Of a stretch of 64,000 nucleotides of DNA, positions 7,466 through 44,654 are shown piece by piece. Under the pieces are notes generated by a model, which was not told the DNA's origin, searched no databases, and was given only the letters and a program-made list of their open reading frames with translations. Position numbers and translations under genes: made by a program. How positions within the stretch are numbered: the stretch's first letter is position 1; the number at the start of each line of letters is the position of its first letter. Origin of the DNA: Acidobacteriota bacterium (GTDB lineage Bacteria > Acidobacteriota > UBA6911); contig OY761556.1 in assembly GCA_963664705.1 (NCBI GenBank), positions 5,856,001-5,920,000 on the forward strand. Direction: 5' to 3'.

Positions 7466-7520
7466 CCGGTGTAATTGTCCTTCAAATGGCCTTGGGGGAA
7501 GTACGCGCTCCAGTTAAATC
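7466..7520 (-). repeat. Cassette-boundary repeat, divergent reverse-strand copy
   Basis: Reverse complement GATTTAACTGGAGCGCGTACTTCCCCCAAGGCCATTTGAAGGACAATTAC aligns with the 27200 and 44594 copies. Confidence 0.45.
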
Positions 7521-7548
7521 TATGCTCGACGCCGGCTGGGGTCTATGA

Positions 7549-9099
7549 CTAACCCTTAGGCAGGAGCGCCGGAGTTCCTAAAGCAATTTCCAACAGTTTC
7601 GGCATATTCAGGTGCATCCTGAAATGCTCGGCCAGAAGGTTGTACTGACGCTCTTTGAAAGACGCCTCATCTTCCTGATAGCGGATATCCTGTTCCAGCC
7701 GCAGTTCCGGCTTCAGCGCATTAAGAAATGTCAGCCGGAAATCGGAAAGATCGAAGAGGCCGTGAAAGTAAGAACCCCAGATTGAGCCGTCAATGGAAAA
7801 AGCGCCATCCACATCATGGACAGCCTGGCCGTTCCTGCCGGTCACGCGGAGGACAGGCCGCGAATTATCCATTCCTTCGGTCGTGCCCATATGAATTTCA
7901 TAGCCTTCCACCTTTTTGTTATAGGCTGTCCAGACACCTGTCGAGCGCGAGAGCATCTTTTCCCGCGAGAGCGTTGTCTGTACATTCAGGAAACCAAGCC
8001 CAGGCGTCTCGCCGGGCGCACCTTCCATCCCGTAAGGATCGCGTATCAGGCGACCCAGCATCTGATATCCTCCGCAAATCCCGCCGATTTTACCTTTCCC
8101 AGCGGCGTACGCCTCAATGTGTGCGGTCCAACCGACATTGCGCAGCCATTCAAGATCACTTCGGACGTTCTTGGATCCCGGCAGAAATACGATATCGTAC
8201 CCTTCAAGAGAACGAGGGCGTGCCAGATAATGCAGGGCGACAACATGCTCGCGAGCCAGGGGAGCGAAATCGGTAAAATTAGAAATGTGTGGGGAACGTA
8301 TTACGGCAACATTAATTTTGTCAGGCGAAGGCTTGGATTGAGGATCGATAACAACGTCCAGCGGCATCCCGTCTTCTGAGTCGATTTCGATGTGCCGATA
8401 ATAAGGAATCAATCCCAATACGGGCAGTCCCGTTCGCTTCTCCAGGTATTCGATCCCATCCGCAAAAAGGCGCGCATCGCCACGGAAGCGATTGATCAGA
8501 ATCCCCCGGATGCGTTTTCGATCCTCCGGCGGAATTACCTCCATGGTTCCGACAACCTGGGCGAATACACCGCCTCGATCGATATCCGCGGCCAGAATTA
8601 CGGGAGCATCTGCTGCATGTGCCATCCTGAAATTGACAAAATCGCGATCCCGCAGATTCACCTCCGCGCAAGATCCGGCTCCTTCCATGACAATGAGATC
8701 ATAGTCCGTGCGCAACCGCTCCAGGCTGATCATCGCCTGCTGGAATAAGTAGGAGGTGTCTGAAAAATATGTCGAGGCTTCGCTATTTCCTATCGCCTTT
8801 CCGTGCAGGACCACCTGGGCGCCGGTATCCGTACATGGCTTTAGAAGCACCGGGTTCATATCCACATGGACCGGGATGCGCGCCGCCTCGGCCTGGACCA
8901 CCTGGGCCCTCCCCACTTCTCCGCCCAGCATCGTGACGTAGGAATTGTTGGACATATTTTGGGCTTTGAAAGGCGCGACCCGCATCCCCAGATTGCTGAA
9001 GATCCGGCAGAGCGCGGCGACAATAACGCTCTTGCCCACATCGGATCCCGTTCCCAGAATGGCCAGGCATTTAGCCGCAGGCCCAGGCGTTGATGCCAT
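7549..9099 (-). CDS. cobQ: Cobyric acid synthase
   Basis: GTGSDVGKS, PFKAQNMSNNS, EGAGSCAEVNL, DIDRGGVFA, ISNFTDF, GICGGYQMLG, GYEIHMG, YFHGLFD. Confidence 0.97.
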   Translation of the reverse strand: MASTPGPAAKCLAILGTGSDVGKSVIVAALCRIFSNLGMRVAPFKAQNMSNNSYVTMLGGEVGRAQVVQAEAARIPVHVDMNPVLLKPCTDTGAQVVLHGKAIGNSEASTYFSDTSYLFQQAMISLERLRTDYDLIVMEGAGSCAEVNLRDRDFVNFRMAHAADAPVILAADIDRGGVFAQVVGTMEVIPPEDRKRIRGILINRFRGDARLFADGIEYLEKRTGLPVLGLIPYYRHIEIDSEDGMPLDVVIDPQSKPSPDKINVAVIRSPHISNFTDFAPLAREHVVALHYLARPRSLEGYDIVFLPGSKNVRSDLEWLRNVGWTAHIEAYAAGKGKIGGICGGYQMLGRLIRDPYGMEGAPGETPGLGFLNVQTTLSREKMLSRSTGVWTAYNKKVEGYEIHMGTTEGMDNSRPVLRVTGRNGQAVHDVDGAFSIDGSIWGSYFHGLFDLSDFRLTFLNALKPELRLEQDIRYQEDEASFKERQYNLLAEHFRMHLNMPKLLEIALGTPALLPKG

Positions 9100-9126
9100 A
9101 AGTAAACCTCTCGATGGATATGTGAG

Positions 9127-9159
9127 AAGGCGGTCCGGCGCAGCCGCCGGACCGCTTTT
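9127..9159. terminator. GC-rich hairpin between btuB and cobQ (terminator or mRNA stabiliser)
   Basis: GCGGTCCGGCG-CAGC-CGCCGGACCGC, perfect 11-bp stem; the T-tract is on the + strand. Confidence 0.55.
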
Positions 9160-9168
9160 GTCCTCATA

Positions 9169-11118
9169 CTAAAACAAGACCTTAAGACCACCAAAGGCAG
9201 ATGCTCCGGCGGTGCCGTATCCTTTGGCCTCTTCATATTTCTGATTGAGCAGGTTTTCGACCCTCACAAATAATTGAAGATGTTCGGCAATCGGATAGGA
9301 TATTGCACAACGAACGAGAGTGTAGAGGTCCAGCGTCACCGGGATGGCAGGATATGTCGAGGAATCGTTATCCGGCCTTTCGCCTGTGAATACAAGGCCG
9401 AAAGTCGCATTGCCTTTGAGCAGACGGGAGCTCAGGTCGAACCCGACCTTGTTTTTCGGCCTTCTCACAAGCTGTCTGCCCGTGGTTTGATCCTTGGAAC
9501 TGGTATAGGTATAACTGGCACGCAGATCAAGGCCATCCTTCAGCTGCATGGATCCAAACATTTCGACCCCTTTGGCTTTAGCTTGGGAAACATTGTTGTA
9601 CTTCATAGCCCAGAGATCGAAATCGATCATATTGCCAAATTCGTTATTGAAATAGGTAGCGCCCAGGGAAAGCCGCTCGCCCTTCAGGAATTGTTCTAGC
9701 CCGAGCTCCCACCCGGTGCTTGTCTCCGGGCTCAGGTTCTTATCGCCGTAGTCGGAATAAAGCTGGTACAGGGATGGAGCCTTGAAACCTGTTCCATAGC
9801 TCCCCTTTATTTTCGTGGCAGTCTGTTTGAAAACAAAGGAAGAGGCGATGTGGTATGTGCCTTCCATTCCAAATGTGCTGTGATTGTCTCCGCGAAGGCC
9901 GACAGTGGTGATCCAGGAGTCGATTGGCTCCATCTGGCCTTGTATATACAATCCGGTGGATCGCGCCGACCTGCTGGGAAAGCTGGAAGTGTAGGAGCCG
10001 TAGGCGCTTTTGGAATAGGTAACCGAATCGCCCTTTTCTACTTCCGTTTCGATCCCGAATGTTATCGCATGCCTCTTTTTTATGCGGAGATTATTTTGCC
10101 AATCAACTTTCAGCTGCTGAGAGTCGAAATTGTACCAGCTGCTGTCGTTTGGATGCGCACTATCCGTATCGTTGCGGCTGTCCCGGATATGCTTGGCTGC
10201 GGTAAATCCGAGTTTCTGCTCCCATATATTGTCAAACAGCATCAGCCGCCCTTGCGTTCTGAAGAACACCTGTTTCGTTTCCGTAGTATAGTTGGGATCA
10301 TCCCCTCCGACGCCTGCTCTATTATCGAGATCTGCCTTGGCGTTTACGTAACGTATCGTGGAGTCGAGATCGAAATACCGGGCAGGGGTGATTCCCAGTC
10401 TTCCGGATATGGAGGTATTTTCATAACCGTCCCTCTCCATGTTTCCATATTTTGCTCCGGCCGCGGATATTCCATCCGAGTTCTCATGGCTGAATCCCAG
10501 CGAATAGCGGAACAGCTTGTTGCCTCCGCTCGCACCTGCGCGCTCTTCGGCGGTATTGAAAGAGCCTCCTCCCAAAGAGGCAAAACCCGTGGTTCTGCCT
10601 TCTCCACTTTTTGTGATGATATTGATGACACCCCCGATGGCGTCTGAGCCATACAGCGTGCTTTGAGGTCCGCGCATCACTTCGACGCGCTCGATGTTGT
10701 CGCTGGTCAAGTTGGCGAAATCAAAATATCGGCCGGTGGCCATAGGATCATTCATCTCAATGCCGTCGATCAAAACGAGTGTATGTTCCGATTTTGCACC
10801 GCGAATAAAAACCGACGTCGGGCTTCCGGGACTGCCCGCCTGAACAATATCCAGCCCCGGAATAGTCCGGAGGATTTCAAACACCGTGGTTTTCTGCATC
10901 TTTTCGATTTCGTCGCTTGTGACGACTGTAATCGAGCTGTTCGCTTCCTTGAGCGGCATTTCCAGGCGCGTGGAGGTAACAATAACTTCATTGTAAATCC
11001 TGATTTGGTCTTTATCCGCCGCTGTTCCATCCGAGGGGTTCTGGTTGTCCGAAGCAAAAACAGATGACGCCGTCAACAGCGCCAGCGCCTGAACTGCAGC
11101 AAGCAATATCTTTTTCAT
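9169..11118 (-). CDS. btuB: TonB-dependent cobalamin receptor
   Basis: EVIVTSTR TonB box region, plug (IERVEVMRGPQSTLYGSDAIGGVINIIT), C-terminal Phe; downstream of B12 riboswitches and upstream of cobQ. Confidence 0.9.
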   Translation of the reverse strand: MKKILLAAVQALALLTASSVFASDNQNPSDGTAADKDQIRIYNEVIVTSTRLEMPLKEANSSITVVTSDEIEKMQKTTVFEILRTIPGLDIVQAGSPGSPTSVFIRGAKSEHTLVLIDGIEMNDPMATGRYFDFANLTSDNIERVEVMRGPQSTLYGSDAIGGVINIITKSGEGRTTGFASLGGGSFNTAEERAGASGGNKLFRYSLGFSHENSDGISAAGAKYGNMERDGYENTSISGRLGITPARYFDLDSTIRYVNAKADLDNRAGVGGDDPNYTTETKQVFFRTQGRLMLFDNIWEQKLGFTAAKHIRDSRNDTDSAHPNDSSWYNFDSQQLKVDWQNNLRIKKRHAITFGIETEVEKGDSVTYSKSAYGSYTSSFPSRSARSTGLYIQGQMEPIDSWITTVGLRGDNHSTFGMEGTYHIASSFVFKQTATKIKGSYGTGFKAPSLYQLYSDYGDKNLSPETSTGWELGLEQFLKGERLSLGATYFNNEFGNMIDFDLWAMKYNNVSQAKAKGVEMFGSMQLKDGLDLRASYTYTSSKDQTTGRQLVRRPKNKVGFDLSSRLLKGNATFGLVFTGERPDNDSSTYPAIPVTLDLYTLVRCAISYPIAEHLQLFVRVENLLNQKYEEAKGYGTAGASAFGGLKVLF

Positions 11119-11167
11119 GCAACTGCTCTCCTATCCTCCCAAGAGGATTAATGGATTAAATACCCGT

Positions 11168-11310
11168 GGAGCAGGTCTCCTGGCTTCCGGTTCCGTCTAC
11201 CAGCCGCGCCTTCCCATCCAAACGGACAGTGGCATGTTGCGGCTTTCGTCCCGATTACAGTCGCTGGGCGGCGGGAGCTTTACACCCCCTTCTCTTTTCC
11301 AGGGCAACGT
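11168..11310 (-). ncRNA. Cobalamin riboswitch (gene-proximal copy)
   Basis: Minus strand ...GCGACTGTAA...GCCACTG...GGGAAGG...AAGCCAGGAGACCTGC (B12 box). Confidence 0.9.
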
Positions 11311-11355
11311 TAGATTATTAAGTTTCCATGCTTCCTTCCGAATCAGGCAGTGGGC

Positions 11356-11387
11356 AAAAAAAACCCGGACCTGATTGCAAGCCCGGG
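11356..11387 (-). terminator. Intrinsic terminator, expression platform of the distal riboswitch
   Basis: CCCGGGCTTG-CAAT-CAGGTCCGGG followed by T8 on the minus strand. Confidence 0.85.
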
Positions 11388-11454
11388 GATTCCGTTTTTA
11401 TCCTCGATGTAATAGTCGTCGTCCCTAGTCCACGAGCGCGCGACTATGCTTTAT

Positions 11455-11610
11455 CGAGCAGGTCTTCCGGCTTCCGGATCAATCTACTTGCCGCGCCTTC
11501 CCATCCAAACGGACAGTGGCATTGATTTCGACTTTCGTCCCCGGTTACGGCGGCGGGACCGCGACGGCTTTTCACCGTCTTCCCTATTAAGGCCCAAGGG
11601 CCGCTCAAGA
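11455..11610 (-). ncRNA. Cobalamin riboswitch (distal copy)
   Basis: Minus strand AATAGGGAAGACGGTGAAAAGCCGTCGCGGTCCCGCCGCCGTAA...GCCACTG...GGGAAGG...AAGCCGGAAGACCTGC. Confidence 0.93.
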
Positions 11611-11760
11611 AGGCCTCATGCTACTTAGGATTCAACAGAGCGTCAAGAGATAATCGGAACGAGAAAGAGGTATTTATTCCTAAAGCCATCGTGAACGAAT
11701 TAGTTTGCGGCCCATTATTGTAATTCACGAGATATCTGAAAAACTGTCAAGCCGGCCACC

Positions 11761-11810
11761 TGCATCAGAGACGCTATTGCATTTTGGCACAATCGTCTCT
11801 TTCGACTCGG
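11761..11810 (+). repeat. Cassette-boundary repeat, degenerate copy
   Basis: CTATTGCAT-TTTGGCA-CAATCGTC...CGAC. Confidence 0.45.
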
Positions 11811-11954
11811 TGGGAGTAATCGAACTTAATCTCCGCGGACACCAAGCTCCAGCAACGACCTGATTTCAACTGCAAGGCCCAGCTTTTGGGAACTTCTTTC
11901 TCTGAAAGGTGTCCATACGAAATATCGTCCCAATCATCGATTCTCGGAGGAACT

Positions 11955-13874
11955 ATGCCGCGCTGCGTCCTCGCTATTTTTCTCTTAGTGGCAACTGGTG
12001 GTGCACAAGATATCTCCCGAATGGACAAGGCGGTACAATCGGTTGTGGCAAACAAGCAGTTCATGGGATCCGTACTGGTGGCTCGAGGGGATCAGGTTCT
12101 TTTCAGCAAAGGCTATGGCTTCGCCAATCTCGAATGGAATATTCCGAACACTCCGGATACCAAATATCGGATCGGCTCCATGACCAAGCAATTCACAGCT
12201 GCGGCGATTCTTTTGCTTGAACAACAAGGCAAAATAAAGGTTGGAGACCCCATCAGGAAGTACCTGCCCGATGATCCGCCAACTTGGGACAAAATCACCA
12301 TCTACCACTTGCTGACCCACACCTCGGGAATTGTGGATCTTCTCAATACGCCTGGCATACAGAATATGATCCCGCTCCCGCAGACTCCGGAACAGCTGTT
12401 GGCTTTAGTGCGCGATAAGCCGCTACAATTCGAGCCCGGAACGAAATTTCTGTACAGCAGCTCCGGCTACAATCTTCTTGGCCGTTTGATAGAGAAGATC
12501 ACTGGTCAGCGCTATCAGGATTACATGCAGAAGAATATCTTCATGCCGCTTGGAATGAAAGACTCCGGGTACGACACAAACATTGACATCCTCCCAAAGC
12601 GGGCATCCGGCTACACGCCTGGCCCCAAAGGACCGGAGAATGCGCAATATGTTCACATGAGCAATACGTACTCAGCCGGTGGCTTATACTCTACTAGTGA
12701 AGACCTGCTGCGCTGGGAACAAGGTCTTTTTGGCGGGAAGATTCTATCCACGGAGTCTCTTTCAAAAATGACTACTCCGAATTTGAATGGATATGCATTC
12801 GGATTATATGTTGGAACGGCAAAGGGGCGCAGGCGCATCATACATGAAGGCGGAGTGCCCGGTTTTAACTCCTGCATGGTTTACTTTCCTGAAACTAAGG
12901 TCACGATCGCAGTTTTATCAAACATGTTCCGTCCTGAAGTTGCTGGAGAGATAGTTGCTCTGCTTTCAGATCTCGCCTACGGGGATAAAGTAATTCTCAC
13001 ATCGGAACTTAACGCAATTGCCGTCTCGCCAAAGATTCTATCGAGCTATGTTGGTACGTACAATTTTCCGTCAAGAGGCAACGTGAGAATTAGCCTGGAG
13101 AACGGAAATCTGCTTTTGAGGACCGGGCAGCTGATGGGGTATGTGAATACAACTGCACTGTCTGCCAGTTCCGAAACTTACTTTTTTTCGAAAGAAACGG
13201 GCATTCAGCTGGAATTCACCAAAGATAGAGGAACCACAACGCATATTGTCCAGCACCGGATTGGTGATGATGATCTCAAAGGTATGAGAGTCAGCGATAC
13301 CGTTTCAGAGCCACCACATGTTCCCCGTGACGTCCTTGAGCAATACGCAGGTGTCTACAAATTACCCCCGGGTTTTGAGTTAGTGTTCTCAGTTGAAAAC
13401 AATGAACTGATTCTCCATCGGACATGGCAATTCCTTCGATATCGGGCAGTGCCTGAGTCGGAGAGCAGGTTTTCTCTAGGGGAGTTGGATGACACATTTG
13501 AATTCATAAAGGATGCGGGCGGTACTGTAACGCATCTTATTCTTCGGAACGGCAATTCGGAAATTATAGCTCCCCGCACTCGTGAAATTGCCGAAGTCGA
13601 CGGTGCGTGGACTGGCAATGAACTATTTTATATTTTCAAGGCAGAAGGAAATACACTTGCTGGAAACTTTGCGTCGAAAGCAGGGGAAGGATGGATATCG
13701 GAGGGCAAGATTGATGGACAAAGGATTTCTTTCATCTTGAACATTGGGTCATCGGCCATTAGAACCGACGCCCGCCTCTCCGGCGATCTGATCACCATAA
13801 CCCAGACAAATGGTAACGGGACAAGCACATCTACAGTTCGCCGGGTTAGGCCAAAGATGACGACAATGCGCTAG
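11955..13874 (+). CDS. Serine hydrolase (beta-lactamase class C/PBP family) with DUF3471-like C-terminal domains
   Basis: IGSMTK (SxxK), LLTHTSGI, YSSSGY, HEGG; RBS GGAGG. Confidence 0.9.
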   Translation: MPRCVLAIFLLVATGGAQDISRMDKAVQSVVANKQFMGSVLVARGDQVLFSKGYGFANLEWNIPNTPDTKYRIGSMTKQFTAAAILLLEQQGKIKVGDPIRKYLPDDPPTWDKITIYHLLTHTSGIVDLLNTPGIQNMIPLPQTPEQLLALVRDKPLQFEPGTKFLYSSSGYNLLGRLIEKITGQRYQDYMQKNIFMPLGMKDSGYDTNIDILPKRASGYTPGPKGPENAQYVHMSNTYSAGGLYSTSEDLLRWEQGLFGGKILSTESLSKMTTPNLNGYAFGLYVGTAKGRRRIIHEGGVPGFNSCMVYFPETKVTIAVLSNMFRPEVAGEIVALLSDLAYGDKVILTSELNAIAVSPKILSSYVGTYNFPSRGNVRISLENGNLLLRTGQLMGYVNTTALSASSETYFFSKETGIQLEFTKDRGTTTHIVQHRIGDDDLKGMRVSDTVSEPPHVPRDVLEQYAGVYKLPPGFELVFSVENNELILHRTWQFLRYRAVPESESRFSLGELDDTFEFIKDAGGTVTHLILRNGNSEIIAPRTREIAEVDGAWTGNELFYIFKAEGNTLAGNFASKAGEGWISEGKIDGQRISFILNIGSSAIRTDARLSGDLITITQTNGNGTSTSTVRRVRPKMTTMR

Positions 13875-14008: not shown

Positions 14009-14060
14009 GTCCGAATGCAGCAATTTACCTTTTGGCGTTATCTCTCCGAACGCGACCTAG
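14009..14060 (+). repeat. Cassette-boundary repeat
   Basis: GTCCGAATGCA-GCAATT-TACCT-TTTGGCG-TTATCTCT-CCGAACGCGAC. Confidence 0.8.
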
Positions 14061-14146
14061 AACGATCATCCTGGCCGTTGCCATCCTCCTGAGGGTAGTG
14101 GTAGGCTCAGGAGGATTCCAATCTTATCTCTTGGGAGAAAGTTACA

Positions 14147-14932: not shown

Positions 14933-14999
14933 GCAGAATGCAGTACTGATGCCGGATTTGACATTTTGGCGTAACTCCCCGCACCGCGACTTCGGGGGA
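14933..14999 (+). repeat. Cassette-boundary repeat
   Basis: GCAGAATGCAGTACTGATGCCGGATTT-GACAT-TTTGGCG-TAACTCCC-CGCACCGCGAC-TTCGGGGGA. Confidence 0.85.
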
Positions 15000-15079
15000 A
15001 CCTGACTGGACGTGCCCGCCAAAGCGGTAAATATCAATACAATAATCGAAATCAGATTTGTCGAAATATTCCGCAACAT
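14990..15079 (-). pseudogene. N-terminal (signal peptide) gene fragment running into the repeat
   Basis: MLRNISTNLISIIVLIFTALAGTSSQ, then the frame reads through repeat sequence. Confidence 0.45.
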
Positions 15080-15180: not shown

Positions 15181-15600
15181 TTGATTAGCAAGATAAAGCA
15201 AATCCAAGGCAGGGTTTTTGAAAAACTTCTCGCCGCCCACGGCATCGACCAATTCAACGGGGCGCAGGGAAGGATTCTCTTTGTGCTTTGGGAGGAGGAC
15301 GGCATCCCCATCCGCAGTCTCTCGGAGCGGACGGGCCTAGCCACCACGACCTTGACCAGTATGCTGGACCGCCTGGAGGCCTCAGGCCACATCGAGCGGA
15401 TCTTGGATCCGACCGACCGCCGCAAGATCCGGATCCGGCTCACGCAAAACGCACTGGGGCTGAAGGACGATTATCAAGCCGTATCCCGGCAAATGAACGG
15501 CATCTTTTACGAGGGCTTCACGGATTCTGAGATCAAGGTCTTTGAAGGCGCGCTCCGCCGAATTCTTGAAAACCTCACGGGAAAGGTAAAAACGCAATGA
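15181..15600 (+). CDS. MarR-family transcriptional regulator (start may be a few codons upstream)
   Basis: QGRILFVLW, LSERTGLATTTLTSMLDRLE, DRRKIRIRLT. Confidence 0.9.
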   Translation: MISKIKQIQGRVFEKLLAAHGIDQFNGAQGRILFVLWEEDGIPIRSLSERTGLATTTLTSMLDRLEASGHIERILDPTDRRKIRIRLTQNALGLKDDYQAVSRQMNGIFYEGFTDSEIKVFEGALRRILENLTGKVKTQ

Positions 15601-16031
15601 ATGAAGCGATCGCATCCGAAGTCCGCGCATTGCGCGAAAACAGCGCAGTGGCCTATGTGGCATCCATTAACGAGCAGGGTTTCCCCCAGGTCAAAGCCAT
15701 GCTTGTATTGGAACATGAAAGTTCGCGAACGCAGCTTTTTTCAACAACTCTCAGTTCTAAGCGGGCGCAGCAGTTTCTAAAAAACCCAAAAGCCTCTGTC
15801 TATTACTGCGACGGCCCGCACTTCAAGGGAGCGCTGTTCACCGGGACCATGGAGGTCCGCAGGGACCGCGAGACCAAGGTCCAGCTCTGGCGCGAAGGAT
15901 TTGAGATTTATTATCCCAAAGGTGTGGATGACCCGGATTATTGCGTGCTCGCATTTACCGCCGACACGGTCAACTATTACCACGGCCTGAGCAATACAAC
16001 CCTGTCTGTGGAGGAGCTTCTAGTTAGCTGA
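15597..16031 (+). CDS. Pyridoxamine 5'-phosphate oxidase-like FMN-binding protein
   Basis: VASINEQGFPQ, NPKASVYY, YYPKGVDDPDYCVL; overlaps marR stop. Confidence 0.85.
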   Translation: MNEAIASEVRALRENSAVAYVASINEQGFPQVKAMLVLEHESSRTQLFSTTLSSKRAQQFLKNPKASVYYCDGPHFKGALFTGTMEVRRDRETKVQLWREGFEIYYPKGVDDPDYCVLAFTADTVNYYHGLSNTTLSVEELLVS

Positions 16032-16090: not shown

Positions 16091-16150
16091 GTATTGATGA
16101 CGGCAATTGACAAGTTGGCGGTATCTCCGCGAGCGCGACTTCTGGACAGT
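16091..16150 (+). repeat. Cassette-boundary repeat
   Basis: GTATTGATGACGGCAATT-GACAA-GTTGGCG-GTATCTCC-GCGAGCGCGAC-TTCTGGACA. Confidence 0.8.
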
Positions 16151-17945: not shown

Positions 17946-17996
17946 GGCATTGCAAACTGGATTGACATTGTGGCGCAATGTCGCGAATGGGACTTC
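17946..17996 (+). repeat. Cassette-boundary repeat with perfectly palindromic core
   Basis: GACATTG-TGGCG-CAATGTC at 17964-17982, followed by CGAATGGGACTTC. Confidence 0.8.
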
Positions 17997-18121
17997 TTAG
18001 GAGTTATCTATTCAATGGTAAATATAAATAGGCTCTGACAGCCGTCGATCAATAATGCAGATTAGAAACAAAATGCAAGACGCACTTTTGCCCTGAGTAC
18101 CTGAGAGCTATTCCCTTTCCA

Positions 18122-19693
18122 TTAGCGTGAAACCTCAAAAGCACCGATATCACACCTACTGGATCGACTAAGCCCGCGCTGGTCGGTAGAGATAAGCACA
18201 CCATCATGATCTGTGCAGCCTGCGGGATTGCCGCCATTTATTGCGGGACTGGATGGCAGCAAGGCATGAGTGCAAGTATCACCACCATTTTGTCTAAGCG
18301 ATCCCAGTTTAGGGTTAACCTTTGATATGTCTCCTGGTCCGGCTAGGCCACAGCTTTCGTCAGAATCTAGATTATAGCCTCCTGAAACCAATGGAGCGTC
18401 ACAGTTTGCGCCAGAAGAACTGTCGCTTAGTATTGTGTTCTTAATTGTAATCACTGTGGATTTGTTGACATCCAAAGTCTTTCCGCGGGGCAAGAGGACG
18501 GGGCGATAGATTGCCCCACCTGAACCAATCGCTCGGCTCTTTCCTCGTATCATTCCGCCCGGTGAACCCCCCTGTGCCGCATTGCCGTAATACGTGCAGT
18601 TGCTTATCCATGCATCATTCACAAAATAGCTTGCCCCGCCCTGTCCATTACCACCATCTCCCGCACAATCAGCATAAACGGGAGCGTACATGTAATTTCC
18701 AGAGACACAAACACCCCCTGCGCCGCCTTTAGCCCGGTTCTGTGAAAAAGTGCTGTTGACTAAACTGACCGCAGCACTGGCGTACAGCGCTCCTCCAATC
18801 CCATCGCCTCCTTTTTGCAACTGGTCTCTTCCTGCTGCTCCTATAGCTGCGTTCTTATAGAAAGTGCAATTTGAAACAGCGCCTGCACCGGCTAAATACA
18901 GTGCGCCTCCCATCCCATTGCCCCCGGGGCCCCTTGGAATTCCATTTTGCACGGTATCACCGGGATTCCCTCCGATTGCCTGATTTTCTGCAAACGTGCT
19001 GTCCGTCAATACAATAGACCCACTGCTGAATATTGCCCCGCCGAACGCAGTGCCGCCAACTCCGGGTGCTACCGGCATTAAAGTGTGGTCGGGCCATGCG
19101 CCAAATCCGCCTGATCCTCCAATGGCGCGGTTAGTTGAAAATGTGCTGTTGATAATGGTTACAATGCCTTTATCGTTATATAGTCCGCCACCCTTAGCCG
19201 GACCGCCCGCTTGTCCGCTTACGCTTAGTTGTTGAGTGCCGCTTGCTCCCTGGGTTCCGATTGTATAGCCCTTCGTGACAATGAGGTTTCTCAATATAAA
19301 ATGAACTTCGGGGTTAACATAGAATACGCGTACGGCATCGTTGCCGCTGATCGTAATAGATTTGGTTCCCGGGCCACTGATAGCTATATTCTTGATAATG
19401 TTCAGGGTGCTGCTCAGAGTAATTGTGCCGACTAATCCGGGTGCGAAATCAATGACATCGTCGGAGACGGCTGCCCCAAGCGCTTCGCGCAATGAGCAGT
19501 CAGAATCGCATGCCCCGTCATTGGTATCAGCCAGCTTGGTTACAGTGTGTGGAGTTGGCGATGCCAGTGTTGAAAAAGACAATCGAAATAAGAACACGGC
19601 CAAGACAACCGCGCGTAAAAACTGTCGTTCGATTATTGACGCAATCGAACGACCCTGTTTATTGTCAAGGCGTCTGAGCATTTTGTCGATCAT
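18122..19693 (-). CDS. CSLREA-domain, Gly-rich beta-helix surface protein with choice-of-anchor-Q-like tail
   Basis: DTNDGACDSDCSLREAL; GGA(I/L)Y repeats; NGGDTCTHALLPSSPAING...DQRG...CDIGAFE. Confidence 0.85.
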   Translation of the reverse strand: MIDKMLRRLDNKQGRSIASIIERQFLRAVVLAVFLFRLSFSTLASPTPHTVTKLADTNDGACDSDCSLREALGAAVSDDVIDFAPGLVGTITLSSTLNIIKNIAISGPGTKSITISGNDAVRVFYVNPEVHFILRNLIVTKGYTIGTQGASGTQQLSVSGQAGGPAKGGGLYNDKGIVTIINSTFSTNRAIGGSGGFGAWPDHTLMPVAPGVGGTAFGGAIFSSGSIVLTDSTFAENQAIGGNPGDTVQNGIPRGPGGNGMGGALYLAGAGAVSNCTFYKNAAIGAAGRDQLQKGGDGIGGALYASAAVSLVNSTFSQNRAKGGAGGVCVSGNYMYAPVYADCAGDGGNGQGGASYFVNDAWISNCTYYGNAAQGGSPGGMIRGKSRAIGSGGAIYRPVLLPRGKTLDVNKSTVITIKNTILSDSSSGANCDAPLVSGGYNLDSDESCGLAGPGDISKVNPKLGSLRQNGGDTCTHALLPSSPAINGGNPAGCTDHDGVLISTDQRGLSRSSRCDIGAFEVSR

Positions 19694-20356
19694 GAGAAGT
19701 CCTCCTCGACATCGAACACCAGTGCCATGCAGTTGGAGCATTCTAGAAGTTGCTTGATTATAACGATATACAATCAAAAGGAGCAACGGTGATTAGGAGA
19801 GACTCCAGCATTTAGAAATCCACTGATTACTCGTGGCAACAACTCGAATTACAATGCTGTTATCCTTAGGATCGGCGGAAAATCTTCATAGGATAATTGT
19901 TCGCCTGCACAAAGGATGGTGGTCTGGCAGTTGAGCGGGAAGCTATAAATAGTCAGAGCAGGCATAATCAAAGATAATGCTCTCAATGTTCGAACTGAGT
20001 GGACTCTTTTCAGGGCCACAATCAAACTCCTAGCGGGATACAGATTCCTCGGTATGAGAGCGCGGTGAACATTCGTAAGTCCAATCGAGTCTAAGGCAAT
20101 CATGTATTGAAAAATTCAATACGGATCCTTTATGTCATAGGGAGAAAATGAGGGCTTTGATTGCGCTGCATCGGGAGAAAGAAGCTTTATCGCATTGCGT
20201 AATTGCTGAAAAGATAACATCAGATCTTATAAAACAATATAAGAAGAAGCTTGATAGCGGCCCAAACGAACTGACCAAGTCTCGTTTATGTCTGGTTAGC
20301 GCTGCTAGGATGTATTTGTTCCGAGTCTGTCCGCCAAAGTAGACAATATTTATCTG

Positions 20357-20415
20357 ACTCTGATGTGATTTACATTTTGGCGTTATCTCCCAGATTTGGA
20401 CATCAGGACAATTGC
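20357..20415 (+). repeat. Cassette-boundary repeat
   Basis: CTGATGTGATT-TACAT-TTTGGCG-TTATCTCC-CAGATTTGGAC-ATCAGGACAATTGC. Confidence 0.88.
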
Positions 20416-23184: not shown

Positions 23185-23224
23185 GGAATTGCCATTTTGG
23201 CGCAATGTCCCTGATTCGCAGGAC
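23185..23224 (+). repeat. Cassette-boundary repeat
   Basis: GGAATT-GCCAT-TTTGGCG-CAATGTCC-CTGATTCG. Confidence 0.8.
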
Positions 23225-23293
23225 CTATCTGGTCCATGATGGAATGCCGCCGTGTTTCCAGCACAAATCTGATGGCTCAAAGGAGACGCTATC

Positions 23294-27266: not shown

Positions 27267-27365
27267 GCTTGCTAGTTCGAATCGTGCAGATGCCTCCACA
27301 GCATTACCATCATGTTGAGTTAGAAAGCTGAAAAAGGGGATGTTTTGCAGCTGAAACCTTGATAT

Positions 27366-28007: not shown

Positions 28008-28060
28008 CAGCACTGACGGGCAATTAACATTTTGGCGTTATCTCCCAGAACTTCAGGACA
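28008..28060 (+). repeat. Cassette-boundary repeat
   Basis: CAGCACTGACGGGCAATT-AACAT-TTTGGCG-TTATCTCC-CAGAAC-TTCAGGACA. Confidence 0.88.
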
Positions 28061-28149
28061 GCATCGTTCGTTTCATCGAATGCCAGAGCGGAAAGAGAAC
28101 ACTATTATGCTCGGTTTTCAGTTATCACTTAGAAAACATAGGGGAAGCA

Positions 28150-28525: not shown

Positions 28526-28574
28526 CAACTTCCTCGAATCAGACTGCAGGACAATTGCATTCGGATTTCGGGGA
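28526..28574 (+). repeat. Cassette-boundary repeat, full right arm with degenerate core
   Basis: CAACTTCC-TCGAATCAGAC-TGCAGGACAATTGCATTCGGATTTCGGGGA. Confidence 0.75.
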
Positions 28575-30630: not shown

Positions 30631-30711
30631 CAGCATTGGCTCCTTTATTTAGCAATTTAGCGCATTTCTCAGATCGGGACTACAGGACAATTGCATTCGG
30701 ACCTTTGGGGA
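30631..30711 (+). repeat. Cassette-boundary repeat with full right arm
   Basis: CAGCATTG...AGCAA-TTTAGCG-CATTTCTC-AGATCGGGAC-TACAGGACAATTGCATTCGGACCTTTGGGGA. Confidence 0.8.
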
Positions 30712-31782: not shown

Positions 31783-31828
31783 AAGTGGCAATTAACAATT
31801 TGGCGTTATCTCCTACAACTTCGGGGGA
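31771..31828 (+). repeat. Cassette-boundary repeat overlapping the TonB-gene stop codon
   Basis: ATCCAACACTAAAAGTGGCAATT-AACAA-TTTGGCG-TTATCTCC-TACAAC-TTCGGGGGA. Confidence 0.88.
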
Positions 31829-31966
31829 TTGTCGAATATTTCACATCTTCGAGTAGTGCGCATTTCGAACAAGTAAGCCTGCAAAAGGCTGTGGGATCAG
31901 CAATCCCGGCAGCCCTGTTCTTTCCGCGTACGGGCGTGTTCAACTTTCAGTCCGACTGGCTCAATA

Positions 31967-34132: not shown

Positions 34133-34250
34133 TAGTATTGACCAGCTGCGCTGGGGCCTCCTTGATAAAACAGGATTCTTGCGATTAATAGAAACTGCGG
34201 TCCAGAAACGGCCATGCAGGAAGCATGGATCGGTCTTAATTGGCAATAGA

Positions 34251-34293
34251 CAGATAACTTTTGGGCGTTTTCTCCCAGATTCGGACTTAGGGC
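34251..34293 (+). repeat. Cassette-boundary repeat
   Basis: CAGAT-AACTT-TTGGGCG-TTTTCTCC-CAGATTCGGAC-TTAGGG. Confidence 0.8.
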
Positions 34294-34351
34294 TCGGAAC
34301 AGTTTGCTGAACCTTAAATAATGTGCCTATGATATCACCTTAGGGGCAAGC

Positions 34352-35326: not shown

Positions 35327-35763
35327 CCTATCCTCCCTCGCATGAAAAACAGCGTTTCATTGCTGCCATATTTGTTGAGCTCAAACGTGACGAAAGACTA
35401 CTTGTCCGTCCGAATATCGATCCGGCTGGCTTTCAATACATCATTCTCGTTCTTACCGATAACAGCTGGTTGCACACCCTCTTTCAAACTATTAACGCCA
35501 GCTAAAGGAACCACCGTCTTTCTCCATTTGAGCTGGAATTTTCCCCTCTTCTGGGCGTGCCTCAACACTCCAACGGTCTGTTTCTATCCAGCTCGGTGCC
35601 CGTAGTATTTGAAAATCGCGAACGTTGTAGGCAATGGTGATTAGTGTACGAAGCGGCATATAACCGGCATTGAATAGAGCCGGATTCGGGAAACTGGACA
35701 AGGGGATAAGTGGTAATCTTGCCTAACTGAGGGGCTGGAAACAGCCGAAAGAAGGAGCATCAG

Positions 35764-36066
35764 ATGGCAAGAAGACAACGCAGGAATCATAGTTCAGTAT
35801 TCAAAGCAAAAGTCGCCCTGGCGGCCCTGAAGGGCGACAAGACGATTGCCGAACTCGCCGAGCAGTTTGAAGTACATCCCAACCAAATCACCGACTGGAA
35901 ACGGCAGCTCCAGGAAAATGCGGCCATTGCGTTCGGGGAAAAGCCCGAAAAAGAAAAAGGGCCGGATATCCAGCGCATGCAAGCCAAGATCGGGCAGCTC
36001 AGTCTCGAGAATGATTTTTTAGAGAATGCGCTTATCAAGGCGGGACTGCTGAGCGCAAAAAGATGA
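35764..36066 (+). CDS. IS3 transposase OrfA (HTH)
   Basis: [14 protein letters not shown]...[17 protein letters not shown]. Confidence 0.95.
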
Positions 36067-36893
36067 TCGACCGCAAGGCCAAGATCTCCATAAAACGACA
36101 ATGCACGTTGCTGAAACTGCCGCGATCAACGGCCTACTACAGACCCGTAGAGGTTCCCCAGTCAGACCTTGAGCTGATGAAGCGAATCGACGAGCTGCAT
36201 CTTCAATGGCCTTTTGCCGGGAGCCGGATGATGCGAGATTTATTGAGGCAGGACAGCTACAAGGTCGGCCGTCGGCATGTCCGAACGTTGATGAGAAAAA
36301 TGGGGATCGATGTTTTGTATCGAAAACCCAATACAAGCCGTAGGCAGGCCGGGCACCATATCTATCCCTATCTCCTGCGGGATTTGAAGGTTGTTCGACC
36401 CGATCAAGCTTGGTCGGCAGACATCACGTATATTCCGATGCGTCGAGGCTTTGTTTATCTGTTTGTCGTCCAGGACTGGTACTCCCGCCGCGTTCTTTCC
36501 TGGCGACTTTCCAACACGCTTACGACGGACTTCTGTATAGAAGCACTGGAGGAGGCTATAGCGAATTATGGCTGTCCTGATATCTTCAACACGGACCAGG
36601 GCTGCCAGTTCACCAGTGTCGAGTTCACAGGCTTTCTCAAAGCGAATGGAATTCAAATCAGCATGGATGGCAAAGGCTGTTGGCGCGATAACGTTTTCGT
36701 TGAACGCCTCTGGCGGACCGTCAAATATGAGCACGTATATCTTTATGCTTACAGCTCGATGAATGAAGCCAAAGAACGTTTGAAGGTGTATCTGGAGTTT
36801 TATAACGGCAAACGACCGCATCAATCACTTGACGGCAAGACTCCTGATGCGGTTTATTTTGAAACCGTCCGCGAAGAAAAGCAGGCGGCGTAA
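36063..36893 (+). CDS. IS3 transposase OrfB (DDE integrase core)
   Basis: [38 protein letters not shown]. Confidence 0.95.
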
Positions 36894-37347
36894 GTCATGG
36901 CTGAGTCGGGCGCTGTGCCTCCAGCCTTCGGCTTCCGGGTACGCGCCCGACATTTTAACTGCGCAAGATTACACTTAATTCCTTTGGGAAGCTGTCCAAA
37001 CAACCGGAGCCACCGCTAATCGCCCTCCGGGCTTTACACGCAATTGAATATTTCCTGATGTGTCAGGCTTGACCGATGCTACTTCAAATCCTGGTTTCGT
37101 ATTGACCTGTGCCTGCACATTAATTGCAATGTTAAATACAAAGAGATTAAGGGTAGCCAGCATTATGATCAAACGATCCATACAGTATCTCCCTGTATTT
37201 GATTTGATACACAAATCAGGTAACTTCTCGTATGGATGTTGGATTTATGTAAATAGTCTAAATATTTGTTGATTCCTAGCATTTATCACAAACGGACCAG
37301 CAACTTCTTAGATGATTTGTCCTGAAACGACAATGTGGGAACCGATG

Positions 37348-38037: not shown

Positions 38038-38107
38038 TTTACGGCCGAACTGAATGGGAAGGAAAGGAGTAGATCCTAAGAACCGCAATGTGGGAAGCGT
38101 GAATGGC

Positions 38108-38169
38108 GCAGAATGCAATATTGAAACGGGAATTGACGTTTTGGCGTTATCTCCCACAACTTTTGGGGA
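38108..38169 (+). repeat. Cassette-boundary repeat
   Basis: GCAGAATGCAATATTGAAACGGGAATT-GACGT-TTTGGCG-TTATCTCC-CACAAC-TTTTGGGGA. Confidence 0.88.
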
Positions 38170-38345
38170 TCTACTGGCAATTCCATTCTGCAAGCGGCAT
38201 GCTATTGGCCAACGTATGCAATTGTTAAATATCAAGCATCCCACAAAGCAAAAATCACGTAGAATGCGGTTATGGCACCCAAAATATACCTGATAGCCCT
38301 AATTGCGTGCTTGGCAGGCGTACCCGCCACTGTATTGCCAGATTT

Positions 38346-39294: not shown

Positions 39295-39347
39295 TAAATT
39301 AGCATTGTGGTGCAATCTCCCCGAATCCGACTTCGGGATAACCATGG
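39295..39347 (+). repeat. Cassette-boundary repeat
   Basis: TAAATT-AGCAT-TGTGGTG-CAATCTCC-CCGAATCCGAC-TTCGGGATA. Confidence 0.78.
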
Positions 39348-39443: not shown

Positions 39444-40580
39444 TCAGCATAATCTTAAAAAATTCCTTTTCCCCACCTGAAGGACGCCTTTTGAATCAAT
39501 TCTGGTCTCCACATCTGTTATGCGCTTGCCATTGAACCTGACTGCTCCCTGTTGGATCAGCCGCCGCGCTTGGCTCTTGCTGGATGCAAACTCTGCTTCA
39601 TGAATCAAGTCCACCAGCCACACGGGGCTTGATTGAATCTTCGACGCCATATCCTGTGGTAATCCACGCTTCTGGTGTATTGACGCAAAATGGGCCGCTG
39701 CTCTGTCGGCGGCCTCGTTTCCATCAAGCGCAGATACGATCTCCCATGCCAATTTCTTCTTTGCTTCCATGGGATGCAATTCTCCCGTGTCTACCGATTT
39801 CAGCAATGCATCGATTTGCACGGGCAGCCAACGAGTAACCAATTCGAACCAATTGCGCATGGCCGAATCCGGAATGGACATGGTTTTGCCGTATTTATCT
39901 TCCGGCTTTTCATCAATGCCGACATAATTGCCGGTGCTCTTCGACATGCGTAATACACCGTCAGTCCCCACCAGAATCGGGAACGTCAGGCAAACCTGCG
40001 GTTTTTGACCAAAGACCTCTTGCAGCTTACGACCGACCAAAAGGTTGAAAAGCTGTTCACTGCCGCCCAACTGCACATCGCATTTGACGTTCACGGCATC
40101 ATAGCCCTGCATCAATGCATAGAGAAATTCATGCAACCAGATTGGATCACCGCTTTTCTGTCGCCTCGAAAAGTTCTCTCGGACTAGAAACTGTTGGACG
40201 GTGAAATGCGATGCCAGGTTAATCACATCTGAAAAAGTCAGTTGAGATAACCAATCCGAATTGCGCAAAACTTCTGTTGTGGTTGAATCCAGAATACGGA
40301 AAGCCTGTTGGATATAGGTTTGAGCATTTTCTGCCAGTTCTTCAGCATGCCTAAGGGGCCGCGCTCGATCCTTATCCGAATTGTCACCAACCAAGCCCGT
40401 GAATGTGCCAATTAAAAATATGGAATGATGCCCCAACTCCTGGAATTGGCGGAGCTTTCGCATTGTAACAGTGTGACCCAGGTGGATATCGGGCGCCGTT
40501 GGATCATATCCACAATAAACCCGAAGTGGACTGCCCGTTTCTGCCGATTCCAGCAGACGACCAGATAATTCCTTGCGCAT
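39444..40580 (-). CDS. tyrS: Tyrosine--tRNA ligase (N-terminus possibly shortened)
   Basis: GYDPTAPDIHLGH (HIGH), LYALMQGYD, LGGSEQLFN, RMSKS (KMSKS), C-terminal S4 (SKSQARRLIQQGAV..QVGKR). Confidence 0.93.
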   Translation of the reverse strand: MRKELSGRLLESAETGSPLRVYCGYDPTAPDIHLGHTVTMRKLRQFQELGHHSIFLIGTFTGLVGDNSDKDRARPLRHAEELAENAQTYIQQAFRILDSTTTEVLRNSDWLSQLTFSDVINLASHFTVQQFLVRENFSRRQKSGDPIWLHEFLYALMQGYDAVNVKCDVQLGGSEQLFNLLVGRKLQEVFGQKPQVCLTFPILVGTDGVLRMSKSTGNYVGIDEKPEDKYGKTMSIPDSAMRNWFELVTRWLPVQIDALLKSVDTGELHPMEAKKKLAWEIVSALDGNEAADRAAAHFASIHQKRGLPQDMASKIQSSPVWLVDLIHEAEFASSKSQARRLIQQGAVRFNGKRITDVETRIDSKGVLQVGKRNFLRLC

Positions 40581-40754
40581 ACTCTCCTTTATTTGGCACA
40601 TTTCTCACTTGTAAGGAACGATATACGGGAATTGGGGGAGATGTGACGGGCACCCCATATCGAGACCCAGGATGGAACAAGAGTGCAGAACGCACAATTA
40701 TGAGATGTCCCAGGATTTCGGGGGCGTTAGGCGGAATCGTTTCCGTCGAGCCAA

Positions 40755-41030
40755 CTACGCAACGATCTTCTTCAACCTGCTAATCTCTCTTTCCAAGCGA
40801 TCGAGACGTGATTCGGTTTGCACGTCATTTTGAAGCGCACTGTTTAGGAGCCGGTTCAAGAGTCTCTGGTAGGGGACTCCTGTTTTGGCAGCTTTAGCCC
40901 GCAGAATTTCAAGATTGGCTTTGTCGATGTTTATCGTGATCTTGATCGACCTGGACGCTGCCATTTTTCGTCGAATCTGTTGCGTTCCTTTTTCATCCAT
41001 TGCAAGCTCATTGAGTTTCGGTTCTTTCAT
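40755..41030 (-). CDS. BrnA/CopG-like antitoxin
   Basis: KITINID...AAKTGVPYQRLLNRLL; overlaps brnT. Confidence 0.8.
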   Translation of the reverse strand: MKEPKLNELAMDEKGTQQIRRKMAASRSIKITINIDKANLEILRAKAAKTGVPYQRLLNRLLNSALQNDVQTESRLDRLEREISRLKKIVA

Positions 41031-41289
41031 TGTAAAACCTCGCAAATTTACGCCACCATACTGATCCTATAATTCGAATATTATCCCCGCGCCTGGTGAA
41101 ACGCGTCGTGAGGATTTTGCCCGATGCTGATTTGCCCACCCAGAAAAACCTCTCCTCGGTCGCGGAGTGTTTCGCATCAGTCAACTGAAAACCGTCAGGA
41201 TCCGAAAACGTCTCAACCGCTTCGGCAAAGGCAATACGATGTTTTTTGAAATTCTCGATCTCCTTGGACAAATCCCATTCAAATTCCAC
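41008..41289 (-). CDS. brnT: BrnT-family toxin
   Basis: MEFEWDLSKEIENFKKHRIAF, HSATEERF, RIIG. Confidence 0.9.
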   Translation of the reverse strand: MEFEWDLSKEIENFKKHRIAFAEAVETFSDPDGFQLTDAKHSATEERFFWVGKSASGKILTTRFTRRGDNIRIIGSVWWRKFARFYNERTETQ

Positions 41290-43509: not shown

Positions 43510-43738
43510 TGGTATCTGGTTCTATCAATAAAGATGCAGCTTTGCTCAAAACAGATGCACTTACAGTAAAATGGGCTCTCCGTACCTCCGCGATAAACAC
43601 TCAATCGTATCATCAACGAGTGCGGGACAAACGAGTTCATGACCGTGAAGTCGCGAAACCGGACAAGTGCGGCCGACTAGGCCAGTTCCATGCATAAGGA
43701 ACAAGAAACGGCCATCCAGGAAACGTCAAGGTCGGCGG

Positions 43739-43805
43739 AGATGCAGCATTGAAGGCGGCAATAAGCATTTCGGCGCAAAGTCCGCCAACCGGACAATTGG
43801 ACAAG
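43739..43805 (+). repeat. Cassette-boundary repeat
   Basis: AGATGCAGCATTGAAGGCGGCAATA-AGCAT-TTCGGCG-CAAAGTCC-GCCAACCGGAC-AATTGGACAA. Confidence 0.8.
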
Positions 43806-43872: not shown

Positions 43873-44184
43873 TCAAGCTGCTTCGAATTTTTTGACCTGA
43901 AATGATTTTCGTTTAGGCTCGACTTGGGCTAGGTCATACTGCAGCTGCTGAAGAAGCCAACTCTCAGCCGTGGTATTGAAAGCAATCGAGAGCCGGATAG
44001 CCATTTCTGCGCTTATTCCAGAACGTCCATTCAAGATACTCGATAGTGTTTTGCGGCTTACACCGAGTGCATCAGCGGCCTGCGTAACCGTCAGCCCAAG
44101 GGGATCAAGGCATAGCTCGCGCAAAATCTCTCCTGGGTGGGGTGGGTTGTGCATTTTTAGCGGCGATTTAGTGATAGTCTTCAT
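43873..44184 (-). CDS. higA: HigA antitoxin
   Basis: [38 protein letters not shown]. Confidence 0.92.
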
Positions 44185-44449
44185 AATCCACATCCTTGAC
44201 GTCGGGACCGGAAAACTCAAATGTAATGCGCCAGTTTTCGCTCACAATCAGAGACCAGGATCTCTTTCGATCTCCGGTCAATGGATGCAAGCGTAGCCCC
44301 GGCAATGCCACGTCCCGGGGCTCTGTTGCTACATGAAGTCGGCCCAGTATCAATCGCAGTTTTGCGACATGCTTCACCTGAATTCCAGCGGTATTCCCGC
44401 GCGTAAAGAAGCGTTCTAATCCCTTGTGTCGGAAATTCAGGATAGCCAC
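44168..44449 (-). CDS. higB: HigB/RelE-type killer toxin
   Basis: [35 protein letters not shown]. Confidence 0.92.
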
Positions 44450-44455
44450 ATCAAA

Positions 44456-44487
44456 GAGTGTAACACGTAACGTATCGGGTTACACTC
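44456..44487. promoter_or_regulatory. Palindromic operator upstream of higBA
   Basis: GAGTGTAAC-N14-GTTACACTC. Confidence 0.65.
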
Positions 44488-44593
44488 AGTTGCTGCGCTA
44501 ATTTGTTCGACAAAAGTTGCCAGGTAGCGGACTTACTCAAATCGTGCTTAACATTGTATTTTCAATGGCATACAAAAAACCGCGATATCACGC

Positions 44594-44654
44594 TCCTCGG
44601 AAACGGCCTTGGGGGAAATTACTCTGGCTTGGCAATTGTGGCGAATTGCATTCT
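44594..44654 (-). repeat. Cassette-boundary repeat, reverse-strand copy
   Basis: Reverse complement AGAATGCAATTCGCCACAATT-GCCAA-GCCAGAG-TAATTTCC-CCCAAGGCCGT-TTCCGAGGA; compare 27200. Confidence 0.6.

Follow-up and report, generated by a model that had tools for sequence, protein, structure and literature searches.

Two types of dif-like site bound putative mobile gene modules in Acidobacteriota: a candidate cassette system apart from integrons

Acidobacteriota are abundant in soil and have large, variable accessory genomes with many unexplained "phage integrase" genes that do not belong to prophages (PMC3469429). One stretch of an Acidobacteriota genome raises the question of whether such accessory genes are gathered by a dedicated recombination system. 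The stretch (G000:5856001-5920000 of contig OY761556.1, 64,000 nucleotides, hereafter the window) belongs to a 6.89-Mb genome in one contig, which we call G000; positions without a prefix are window positions. From the letters of the window alone, an initial annotation had described a degenerate intergenic repeat, AATT-RACAT-TTTGGCG, and had proposed that it marks a non-integron, site-specific system of gene modules whose recombinase acts in trans. Clustering of the repeat, its strand rules, the breakpoints seen in relatives, and the lack of attC sites and of IntI all favor this proposal. If it is correct, the system would be a means of gene capture distinct from integrons.

The repeat is real, but the motif by which it was recognized is a flanking element, and the conserved core lies further right. 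Column conservation extends about 30 bases past AATT-RACAT-TTTGGCG, and many copies retain only this right part. The core is a 28-bp dif-like quasi-palindrome in which two 11-bp arms (arm1 and arm2) enclose a 6-bp spacer. It comes in two types, each with variable first three spacer bases: type 1 (T1), with the spacer xxxGAC and the consensus ATTTCCCAGAA CGCGAC TTCGGGGGAGT (217 calls), and type 2 (T2), with the spacer xxxCGT and the consensus GTTTCCCAGAT GGCCGT TTCTTGGGAGT (70 calls). GAC ends the spacer in 207/217 T1 calls and CGT in 59/70 T2 calls. The AATT-RACAT-TTTGGCG motif is an accessory element located in the 18 bases ahead of T1 arm1. It precedes 138/214 T1 calls, a count inflated by metagenome loci that were retrieved with a pattern containing the motif, versus 0/70 T2 calls; at G000:5612089, a site having the accessory motif but a T2-like spacer was scored as T1. 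Our guess is that this motif serves as a directionality site or as the site of a bending protein; it may also resemble the consensus of integration host factor.

The window holds 17 T1 sites, all on the + strand, and 7 T2 sites, all on the − strand. Eleven T1 sites are full, those at 11790 and 23205 are degenerate, that at 17978 has a 1-bp deletion, and those at 28040, 31808, and 38149 share a 5-bp deletion. All but one of the 18 + strand copies listed in the initial annotation map onto T1; the remaining one, at 21252, is not a site and abuts a lone 41-bp IS3 end fragment (21214-21254). The two copies listed as reversed (7466 and 44594) are genuine but belong to T2, of which five more (27189, 34224, 37343, 38098, and 43724) had been missed. 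The placement of copies at gene boundaries held up, since 23 of 24 site centers lie outside the chosen list of open reading frames (ORFs; 74% coding) and the exception lies in a doubtful ORF. As stated earlier, no strong copy is present in the window beyond 44.7 kb.

Genome-wide, the sites are clustered in about six regions of the chromosome. A 27-bp matrix derived from 12 window copies gave 32 matches above 20 bits in G000 versus none in 2 Mb of shuffled sequence. The clusters lie at approximately 2.91 to 2.94, 5.02 to 5.03, 5.61 to 5.63, 5.87 to 5.90 (the window), and 6.71 Mb, with single sites elsewhere. When the model was built solely from 205 sites of other genomes, 34/36 T1 matches (>16 bits) and 17/20 T2 matches (>18 bits) in G000 fell inside 124 kb, the intervals having been taken from our earlier scans of this genome.

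Neighboring sites obey an orientation grammar. Neighbors less than 5 kb apart were counted in a partly redundant set made up of the arrays of G000, 75 loci from metagenomes, and 20 loci from relatives. T1/T1 neighbors were direct repeats in 84/94 cases and T2/T2 neighbors in 10/11 (94/105 for same-type neighbors overall), and T1/T2 neighbors were inverted in 104/106. Of 53 pairs of back-to-back T2 and T1 sites, 45 were separated by 120 bp or less. A unit therefore reads T1, T1, and so on, followed by inverted T2, T2, and short gene-free linkers join one unit to the next. The arrays of relatives follow the same grammar. Identical spacers were found in 18/95 pairs of neighboring T1 sites versus 8.2 expected, a number that genome-specific spacer usage may inflate; the sharing fits insertion at a matching spacer and is the opposite of what we had supposed, namely, that neighboring T1 sites avoid identical spacers for stability. 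The idea that a back-to-back T2/T1 pair folds as an attC-like hairpin also was abandoned: nine T2-linker-T1 composites, folded on both strands, gave z scores from +0.6 to -1.2, with one at -2.4, and eight of the nine folded no better than shuffled sequences.

The points at which neighboring DNA changes were located by comparing 287 sites, requiring at least 80% identity in the adjoining 30 bases and dropping element-filled sites. Sixteen site pairs share upstream DNA only, and in these the identity of arm1 is 0.89 and that of arm2 is 0.54; nine of these pairs derive from five related contigs with a shared 3' end of a recombinase gene, YRc, discussed below. In the five pairs sharing downstream DNA only, the corresponding values are 0.65 and 0.87, and the background for unrelated site pairs is 0.68 and 0.54. 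Contigs from wetlands give the same picture at the level of single bases. Similarity to the window sets in at 14991 (base 1 of arm2) for one contig, at 16135-16136 (within the spacer) for three, and at 34284 (the G of GAC in the spacer) for two. Taken together, the split in arm identity and the contig breakpoints place the crossover in the 6-bp spacer, 12 to 17 bp downstream of the TTGGCG to which it had been assigned. We rejected AATT-RACAT-TTTGGCG itself as the core (spacer of 5 or 7 bp) because the breakpoints fall further right.

Whole modules also are found in new surroundings. A 468-bp T1-to-T1 cassette has different neighbors on both sides at two loci (L104 and L262), and two cassettes recur at other G000 arrays with 91% and 86% identity. 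The 300 bp upstream of the T1 site at 20385 have an 86% identical copy ahead of a T1 site in array A, where the downstream DNA differs. On the strength of these comparisons, the sites very probably are recombination sites that bound mobile gene modules. One raw-read run gave a single read. In sequencing runs, joints between one site and another, with matches of 22 to 36 letters, were attributed to further copies of the repeat and not to excision.

The repeat is found beyond G000. A sequence model of it matches 20/29 same-genus genomes, and a strict pattern occurs in 12/29 of these and in 0/31 genomes of other genera. G000 has the most sites among the genomes searched (41 matches, with a model built from G000 copies). 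In more distant Acidobacteria, the layout and the GAC and CGT spacer ends are unchanged but the arms differ; for example, genome G063 has four T1 sites about 1.1 kb apart. An arm pattern of the Terriglobia type, searched in 101 genomes of that class, gave one or two matches in 15 genomes only, which is too few for arrays to be called. A metagenome search returned 0 matches with a longer pattern and 79 stretches with a shorter one, and the exact T1 pattern had no match in the viral contigs searched. The Fer4 gene of the right flank, used as a probe for an empty site, matched in 0/29 relatives at E<=1e-30.

Which enzyme could act on these sites? The earlier statement that the window encodes no tyrosine or serine recombinase was confirmed, as a scan of 71 window ORFs revealed IS3 transposases only. 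Scanning of the site loci found a tyrosine recombinase, YRc, beside sites in relatives; this likeliest enzyme is missing not only from the window but from the whole of G000. YRc is a 324-aa Xer-like tyrosine recombinase (L263:3874-4848), with an accessory motif and a T1 site about 96 bp past its stop codon. It consists of a phage-integrase domain only, has an intact R-K-H-R-H-Y motif, and is 29% identical to host XerC. Its scores are far below the XerC, XerD, and IntI cutoffs (for TIGR02249, 43.5 bits versus a cutoff of 265). Related sequences form at least 8,000 clusters.

The association between YRc and the sites was assessed at 28 loci found by protein search, five loci found via the site pattern being left out. 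A GAC-type site lies within 190 nucleotides past the stop codon in 14 of them versus 7.6% of 1,926 control windows. Sites upstream of YRc in relatives, whether T2 or T1, point away from the gene. Behind near-identical YRc genes, T1 is followed by at least six different combinations of arm2 and first cassette; in integrons, attI likewise precedes a variable first cassette. Among the 29 same-genus genomes, YRc was found in 8, corresponding to 8 of the 20 with sites and 0 of the 9 without. The arms vary with the enzyme. Where YRc is at least 71% identical to the query (12 loci), they mostly end in CGAA/AGAT, the type of this genus, and where it is 60 to 67% identical (7 loci), they end in GGTTA/GGTAA/GGTTT/GGGAT/CGCTA. 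Both pairings coexist in single genomes (L355 and L360 versus L364 in G067; L327 versus L340 in G262). Across the family the dif site, by contrast, varies little: of the 30 loci read, nearly all have ACTTCTGATAA or a close variant of it as the XerC arm. A third arm type accompanies a 63.6% identical YRc, ACIX9_RS23090 (WP_013573308.1), on plasmid pACIX905 of the cultured Granulicella tundricola, where six T1 and two T2 sites lie within 25 kb and point away from the YRc gene in the layout seen in relatives. This makes the system testable now. From these sequence associations, we judge it reasonably probable that YRc catalyzes module exchange; it is the likeliest enzyme, and host XerC/XerD is its main rival.

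In the scheme that we propose, accessory-gene modules would be arrayed between 28-bp sites of two types and exchanged by YRc acting as a homotetramer. A full platform would have the arrangement T2 <- YRc gene -> T1. Cassettes would be circular, with one-T1 circles inserting at T1 and T2 circles inserting at T2, so that arrays would extend in both directions. Recombination between T1 and T2 would be blocked by the spacer's final three bases, GAC or CGT, serving as keys. Given this incompatibility, a block between a facing T1 and T2 also could be swapped by double crossover, which would resemble engineered cassette exchange. The short back-to-back T2/T1 pairs would represent platforms that lack a recombinase gene, and the G000 arrays would be integrase-less stores, similar to clusters of attC sites lacking integron-integrases (CALINs), that still provide landing sites for other mobile elements. 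We lean slightly toward the view that this is a third class of cassette system beside integrons and dif modules, in which a mobile, dedicated Xer-like recombinase situated between two incompatible sites builds two-way arrays. It would amount to natural recombinase-mediated cassette exchange across Acidobacteriota, with arms that coevolve with the enzyme. The sites would also be exploited by a guild of recombinase-bearing parasites, among them an IS91-like element integrating in the manner of CTXphi.

Several observations weigh against YRc in this role. No recombination, circle, or binding was observed. YRc is absent from G000, with no remnant by tblastn or blastn, despite the large number of sites, and 12 of the 20 site-bearing same-genus relatives gave no YRc. 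Half of the YRc loci (14/28) have no adjacent downstream site by the pattern used. The split between arm types and recombinase variants is one change on the YRc tree and, thus, amounts to one event plus two within-genome contrasts; at one locus (L348), a single YRc is followed by both arm types, 57 bp from each other. Other Acidobacteria have an arm1 that equals the dif XerC arm. Finally, two other recombinase-bearing elements insert into the sites, so YRc could be a third tenant and not the landlord.

The comparison with integrons turns on the site itself. Integron attC sites carry an R'' box (RYYYAAC) and an R' box (GTTRRRY), fold as single-strand hairpins, and are recombined by the IntI integrase together with attI. 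As in integrons and CALINs, tandem cassettes here are bordered by directly repeated sites that change neighbors, arrays outlast the recombinase, and both TA (toxin-antitoxin) cassettes and site-targeting mobile elements occur. The absence of attC boxes noted initially was upheld: at 11 window sites, the 200-nucleotide surroundings contain one lone RYYYAAC and one lone GTTRRRY, never a pair. There is no hairpin, and no G000 protein matches IntI above the TIGR02249 cutoff. Also unlike integrons, the genes downstream of sites face both ways, as had been reported, there are two site types, and arrays would grow on both sides of the recombinase gene. The system combines the site geometry of dif modules with the tandem stacking of integrons and lacks defining properties of both. 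Full-text literature searches, with most subscription papers beyond reach, did not turn up any account of a two-key system in Acidobacteria.

The modules could instead be real and be shuffled by host XerC, with or without XerD, as a chromosomal dif-module system with YRc as a passenger; we consider this unlikely, and it is the strongest of the alternatives. Its model is Acinetobacter, in which host XerC/XerD act on pdif sites in dif modules and chromosomal dif module islands (PMC13141974, PMC12907356, PMC11705084), and pdif sites are hunted by the IS1202 family (PMC10132070). The two systems share 28-bp 11-6-11 sites, the geometry of dif, with crossover in the spacer and modules of one to a few unrelated genes that form linear arrays, both chromosomal and plasmid-borne. 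They also share empty modules, TA modules, modules without a recombinase, putatively spacer-governed compatibility, and site-hunting mobile elements (PMC13141974, PMC10132070).

The arms speak on both sides. In other Terriglobia-type genomes the arm1 consensus ATGTCCGRTAA is nearly identical to, and matches, the XerC arm of their dif, and the accessory motif equals the reversed XerD arm of G000 at 8/11 positions. Within this genus, however, arm1 agrees with its own XerC arm at an average of 6.1/11 positions, and there is no XerD arm, arm2 averaging 4.8 (T1) and 4.4 (T2) of 11; Acinetobacter pdif sites, by contrast, retain a nearly intact XerD arm (PMC13141974). The quasi-symmetric arms drift between lineages while dif stays nearly constant, and they differ by YRc variant within one genome having one XerCD. 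The sites also show no strict C/D alternation, whereas Acinetobacter pdif sites must alternate (PMC13141974): long direct runs occur (84/94 for T1 neighbors), and 96/211 neighboring pairs of all types are direct repeats, although overlooked decayed sites could inflate this count. Two spacer keys tied to orientation are a further difference. As to the genes, XerC and XerD are, arm-type integrases aside, the sole tyrosine recombinases certainly common to G000 and three well-assembled relatives examined, and they would account for arrays in genomes without YRc; on the other side, relatives carry a dedicated recombinase gene in linkage with the sites, and dif, at 2.04 Mb, is megabases away from the arrays. 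Chromosomal dif was located at G000:2036985-2037012 (L010), about 2.5 kb from xerD and near the GC-skew terminus. Outside the T1/T2 family, a further dif-like site, whose XerD arm is near canonical, occurs at L289 (G014:C4:234376) and twice in G002.

A less likely alternative, which we regard as doubtful, is that the tenants' own recombinases move the cargo modules in trans. One tenant is a 3.5-kb element with two tyrosine recombinases, a 124-aa ORF, and 13-bp inverted ends. All four full copies in G000 are inserted at the spacer/arm2 boundary of T1 (G000:2926824, 5024283, 5618132, and 5622469; L002-L004). Its relatives across Acidobacteria (80 kept of 315 hits) likewise insert in lineage-specific 11-6-11 palindromes, and element and target have just the final three bases of the spacer in common. 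It is the only candidate recombinase source intact in G000; close copies are present in just 3/30 genus genomes, and as sole driver it was therefore rejected. The second tenant has a 288-aa tyrosine recombinase upstream of an IS91-type Y2 transposase and starts at the spacer/arm2 boundary of T1 or T2, with which it shares only the last three to four spacer bases. At its far end, two inverted dif-like sites fold as a long hairpin with a 5-nucleotide bulge. It occurs in 12/29 same-genus genomes, all of them site bearing, and is not intact in G000. The difficulty for both is that each has its own fixed ends and transposition genes (an inverted-repeat pair in one, the Y2 transposase and folding end in the other), that neither element's ends are present on cargo modules, and that the tenants' att arms do not track the arm type of the host genus, which fits parasites.

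Each tenant has known counterparts. The two-recombinase element, with its small ORF and short inverted repeats, is, in this layout, like Tn554-type and recombinase-in-trio (RIT) elements (PMC8138268), a likeness that concerns the tenant only. Three-recombinase (RIT-like) elements are present in arrays of G063 (L126:7138-10402 and L128:7673-10940). The IS91-like element resembles integrative mobile elements exploiting Xer (CTXphi and TLC at dif) in its folded pair of dif-like sites and few shared spacer bases, and the hairpin end resembles the folded attP of CTXphi. It differs in targeting array sites instead of dif and in encoding its own recombinase, and the likeness applies to the tenant and not to the cargo modules. 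IS91-like elements were located at L108:979-3057, L128, and L147, and hairpin-only mini-derivatives were located at L111 and L012. T2 sites of G000 hold scars of both tenants. The 5-bp deletion of the T1 sites at 28040, 31808, and 38149 spans arm1 and the spacer; from sequence, a link with the 5-base bulge of the tenant's folded end is possible.

That the repeat is a promoter, regulator site, or repetitive extragenic palindromic (REP) or miniature inverted-repeat transposable element (MITE) sequence accumulating in accessory regions, with no role in recombination, is very improbable: the accessory motif contains a TTGACA-like hexamer and the copies are all intergenic, but a promoter scan of 11700-31600 found 22 sites versus 22.2 expected and none at the repeat, downstream genes have both orientations, breakpoints fall in the spacer, copies cluster and obey the orientation rule, eight of nine composites lack excess folding, and a check for REP, bacterial interspersed mosaic element, or MITE character found no stable hairpin, the only Rfam matches in the window being cobalamin riboswitches.

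The proposed exchange by YRc also has a parallel in TnpI/IRS of Tn4430, in which a simple tyrosine recombinase acts on an inverted core with an adjoining accessory motif and the gene lies beside the site; the internal recombination site (IRS) is a single resolution site in a Tn3-family transposon (PMC2847244). Here, dozens of sites delimit cargo, binding of the accessory motif by the recombinase is putative, and none of the 71 window ORFs is a Tn3 transposase. If YRc is the enzyme, a system with at least 8,000 recombinase clusters would provide a mechanism for the variability of Acidobacteriota that integron finders would miss. A single-protein recombinase with two natural, noninteracting sites and arm variants likewise would be a ready-made tool for cassette exchange.

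Table 1. Sites and cargo of the array in the window
Feature	Positions	Strand	Remark
T2 site, arm1-GGCCAT-arm2	7475..7502	−	Left boundary; initially listed as reversed copy 7466
cobQ, btuB-type TonB receptor, two cobalamin riboswitches	7549..11623	−	Between T2 7502 and degenerate T1 11790
Accessory motif and T1 site, both degenerate	11772..11817	+	
Cassette gene: serine hydrolase, beta-lactamase fold, DUF3471	11886..13874	+	
Accessory motif (14022-14039) and T1 core (14040-14067)	14022..14067	+	
Accessory motif and T1 core (14974-15001)	14956..15001	+	
Cassette: MarR regulator and PNPOx-like gene	15181..16031	+	91% identical copy adjoins array C, G000:5611013-5611919
Accessory motif and T1 core (16123-16150)	16105..16150	+	
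Accessory motif and T1 core with 1-bp deletion	17960..18004	+	
Cassette gene: CSLREA/choice-of-anchor Q protein	18122..19786	−	
Accessory motif and T1 core (20385-20412)	20367..20412	+	
Accessory motif and T1 core (degenerate)	23187..23232	+	
T1 core without accessory motif	25716..25743	+	
Back-to-back pair, "empty" module	27162..27268		T2 (−, 27162-27189), short linker holding accessory motif, T1 (+, 27241-27268)
Accessory motif and T1 core with 5-bp deletion	28022..28062	+	
T1 core, accessory motif decayed	28528..28555	+	
T1 core, accessory motif decayed	30664..30691	+	
Accessory motif and T1 core with 5-bp deletion	31790..31830	+	
Back-to-back pair	34197..34297		T2 (−, 34197-34224), T1 (+, 34270-34297)
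IS3-family element within array	35676..37018	+	Identical inverted second copy 51561-52903
T2 core	37316..37343	−	
Back-to-back pair	38071..38171		T2 (−, 38071-38098), T1 with 5-bp deletion (+, 38149-38171)
Accessory motif and T1 core (39315-39342)	39297..39342	+	
Cargo: second tyrosyl-tRNA synthetase	39444..40601	−	30% identical to other copy at G000:71720
BrnT toxin/CopG-type antitoxin pair	40755..41289	−	
Back-to-back pair	43697..43805		T2 (−, 43697-43724), T1 (+, 43778-43805)
HigB/HigA toxin-antitoxin module	43873..44449	−	Framed by facing T1 43778 and T2 44619
T2 site	44592..44619	−	Right boundary; initially listed as reversed copy 44594

TA pairs, which had been described as abundant, number just two in the window, one of the BrnT/CopG type and one HigB/HigA. 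The block with cobQ and the btuB-type receptor is possibly a module, and its two riboswitches, in tandem at 11153-11623, precede both genes. Beyond the window, integrase/primase elements contain or border arrays E and F (L005:5139-14050; L006/L007), and arrays in G014 and G028 have remnants of related integrases on their flanks; such elements, therefore, may transfer arrays from cell to cell. At G000:2946549-2946905 lies a different high-copy repeat, intergenic and REP-like, which has well over 100 matches in the genome. Finally, 79 bp of the window (7391-7469) are 99% identical to G000:2938228-2938307, and each copy adjoins a T2 site.

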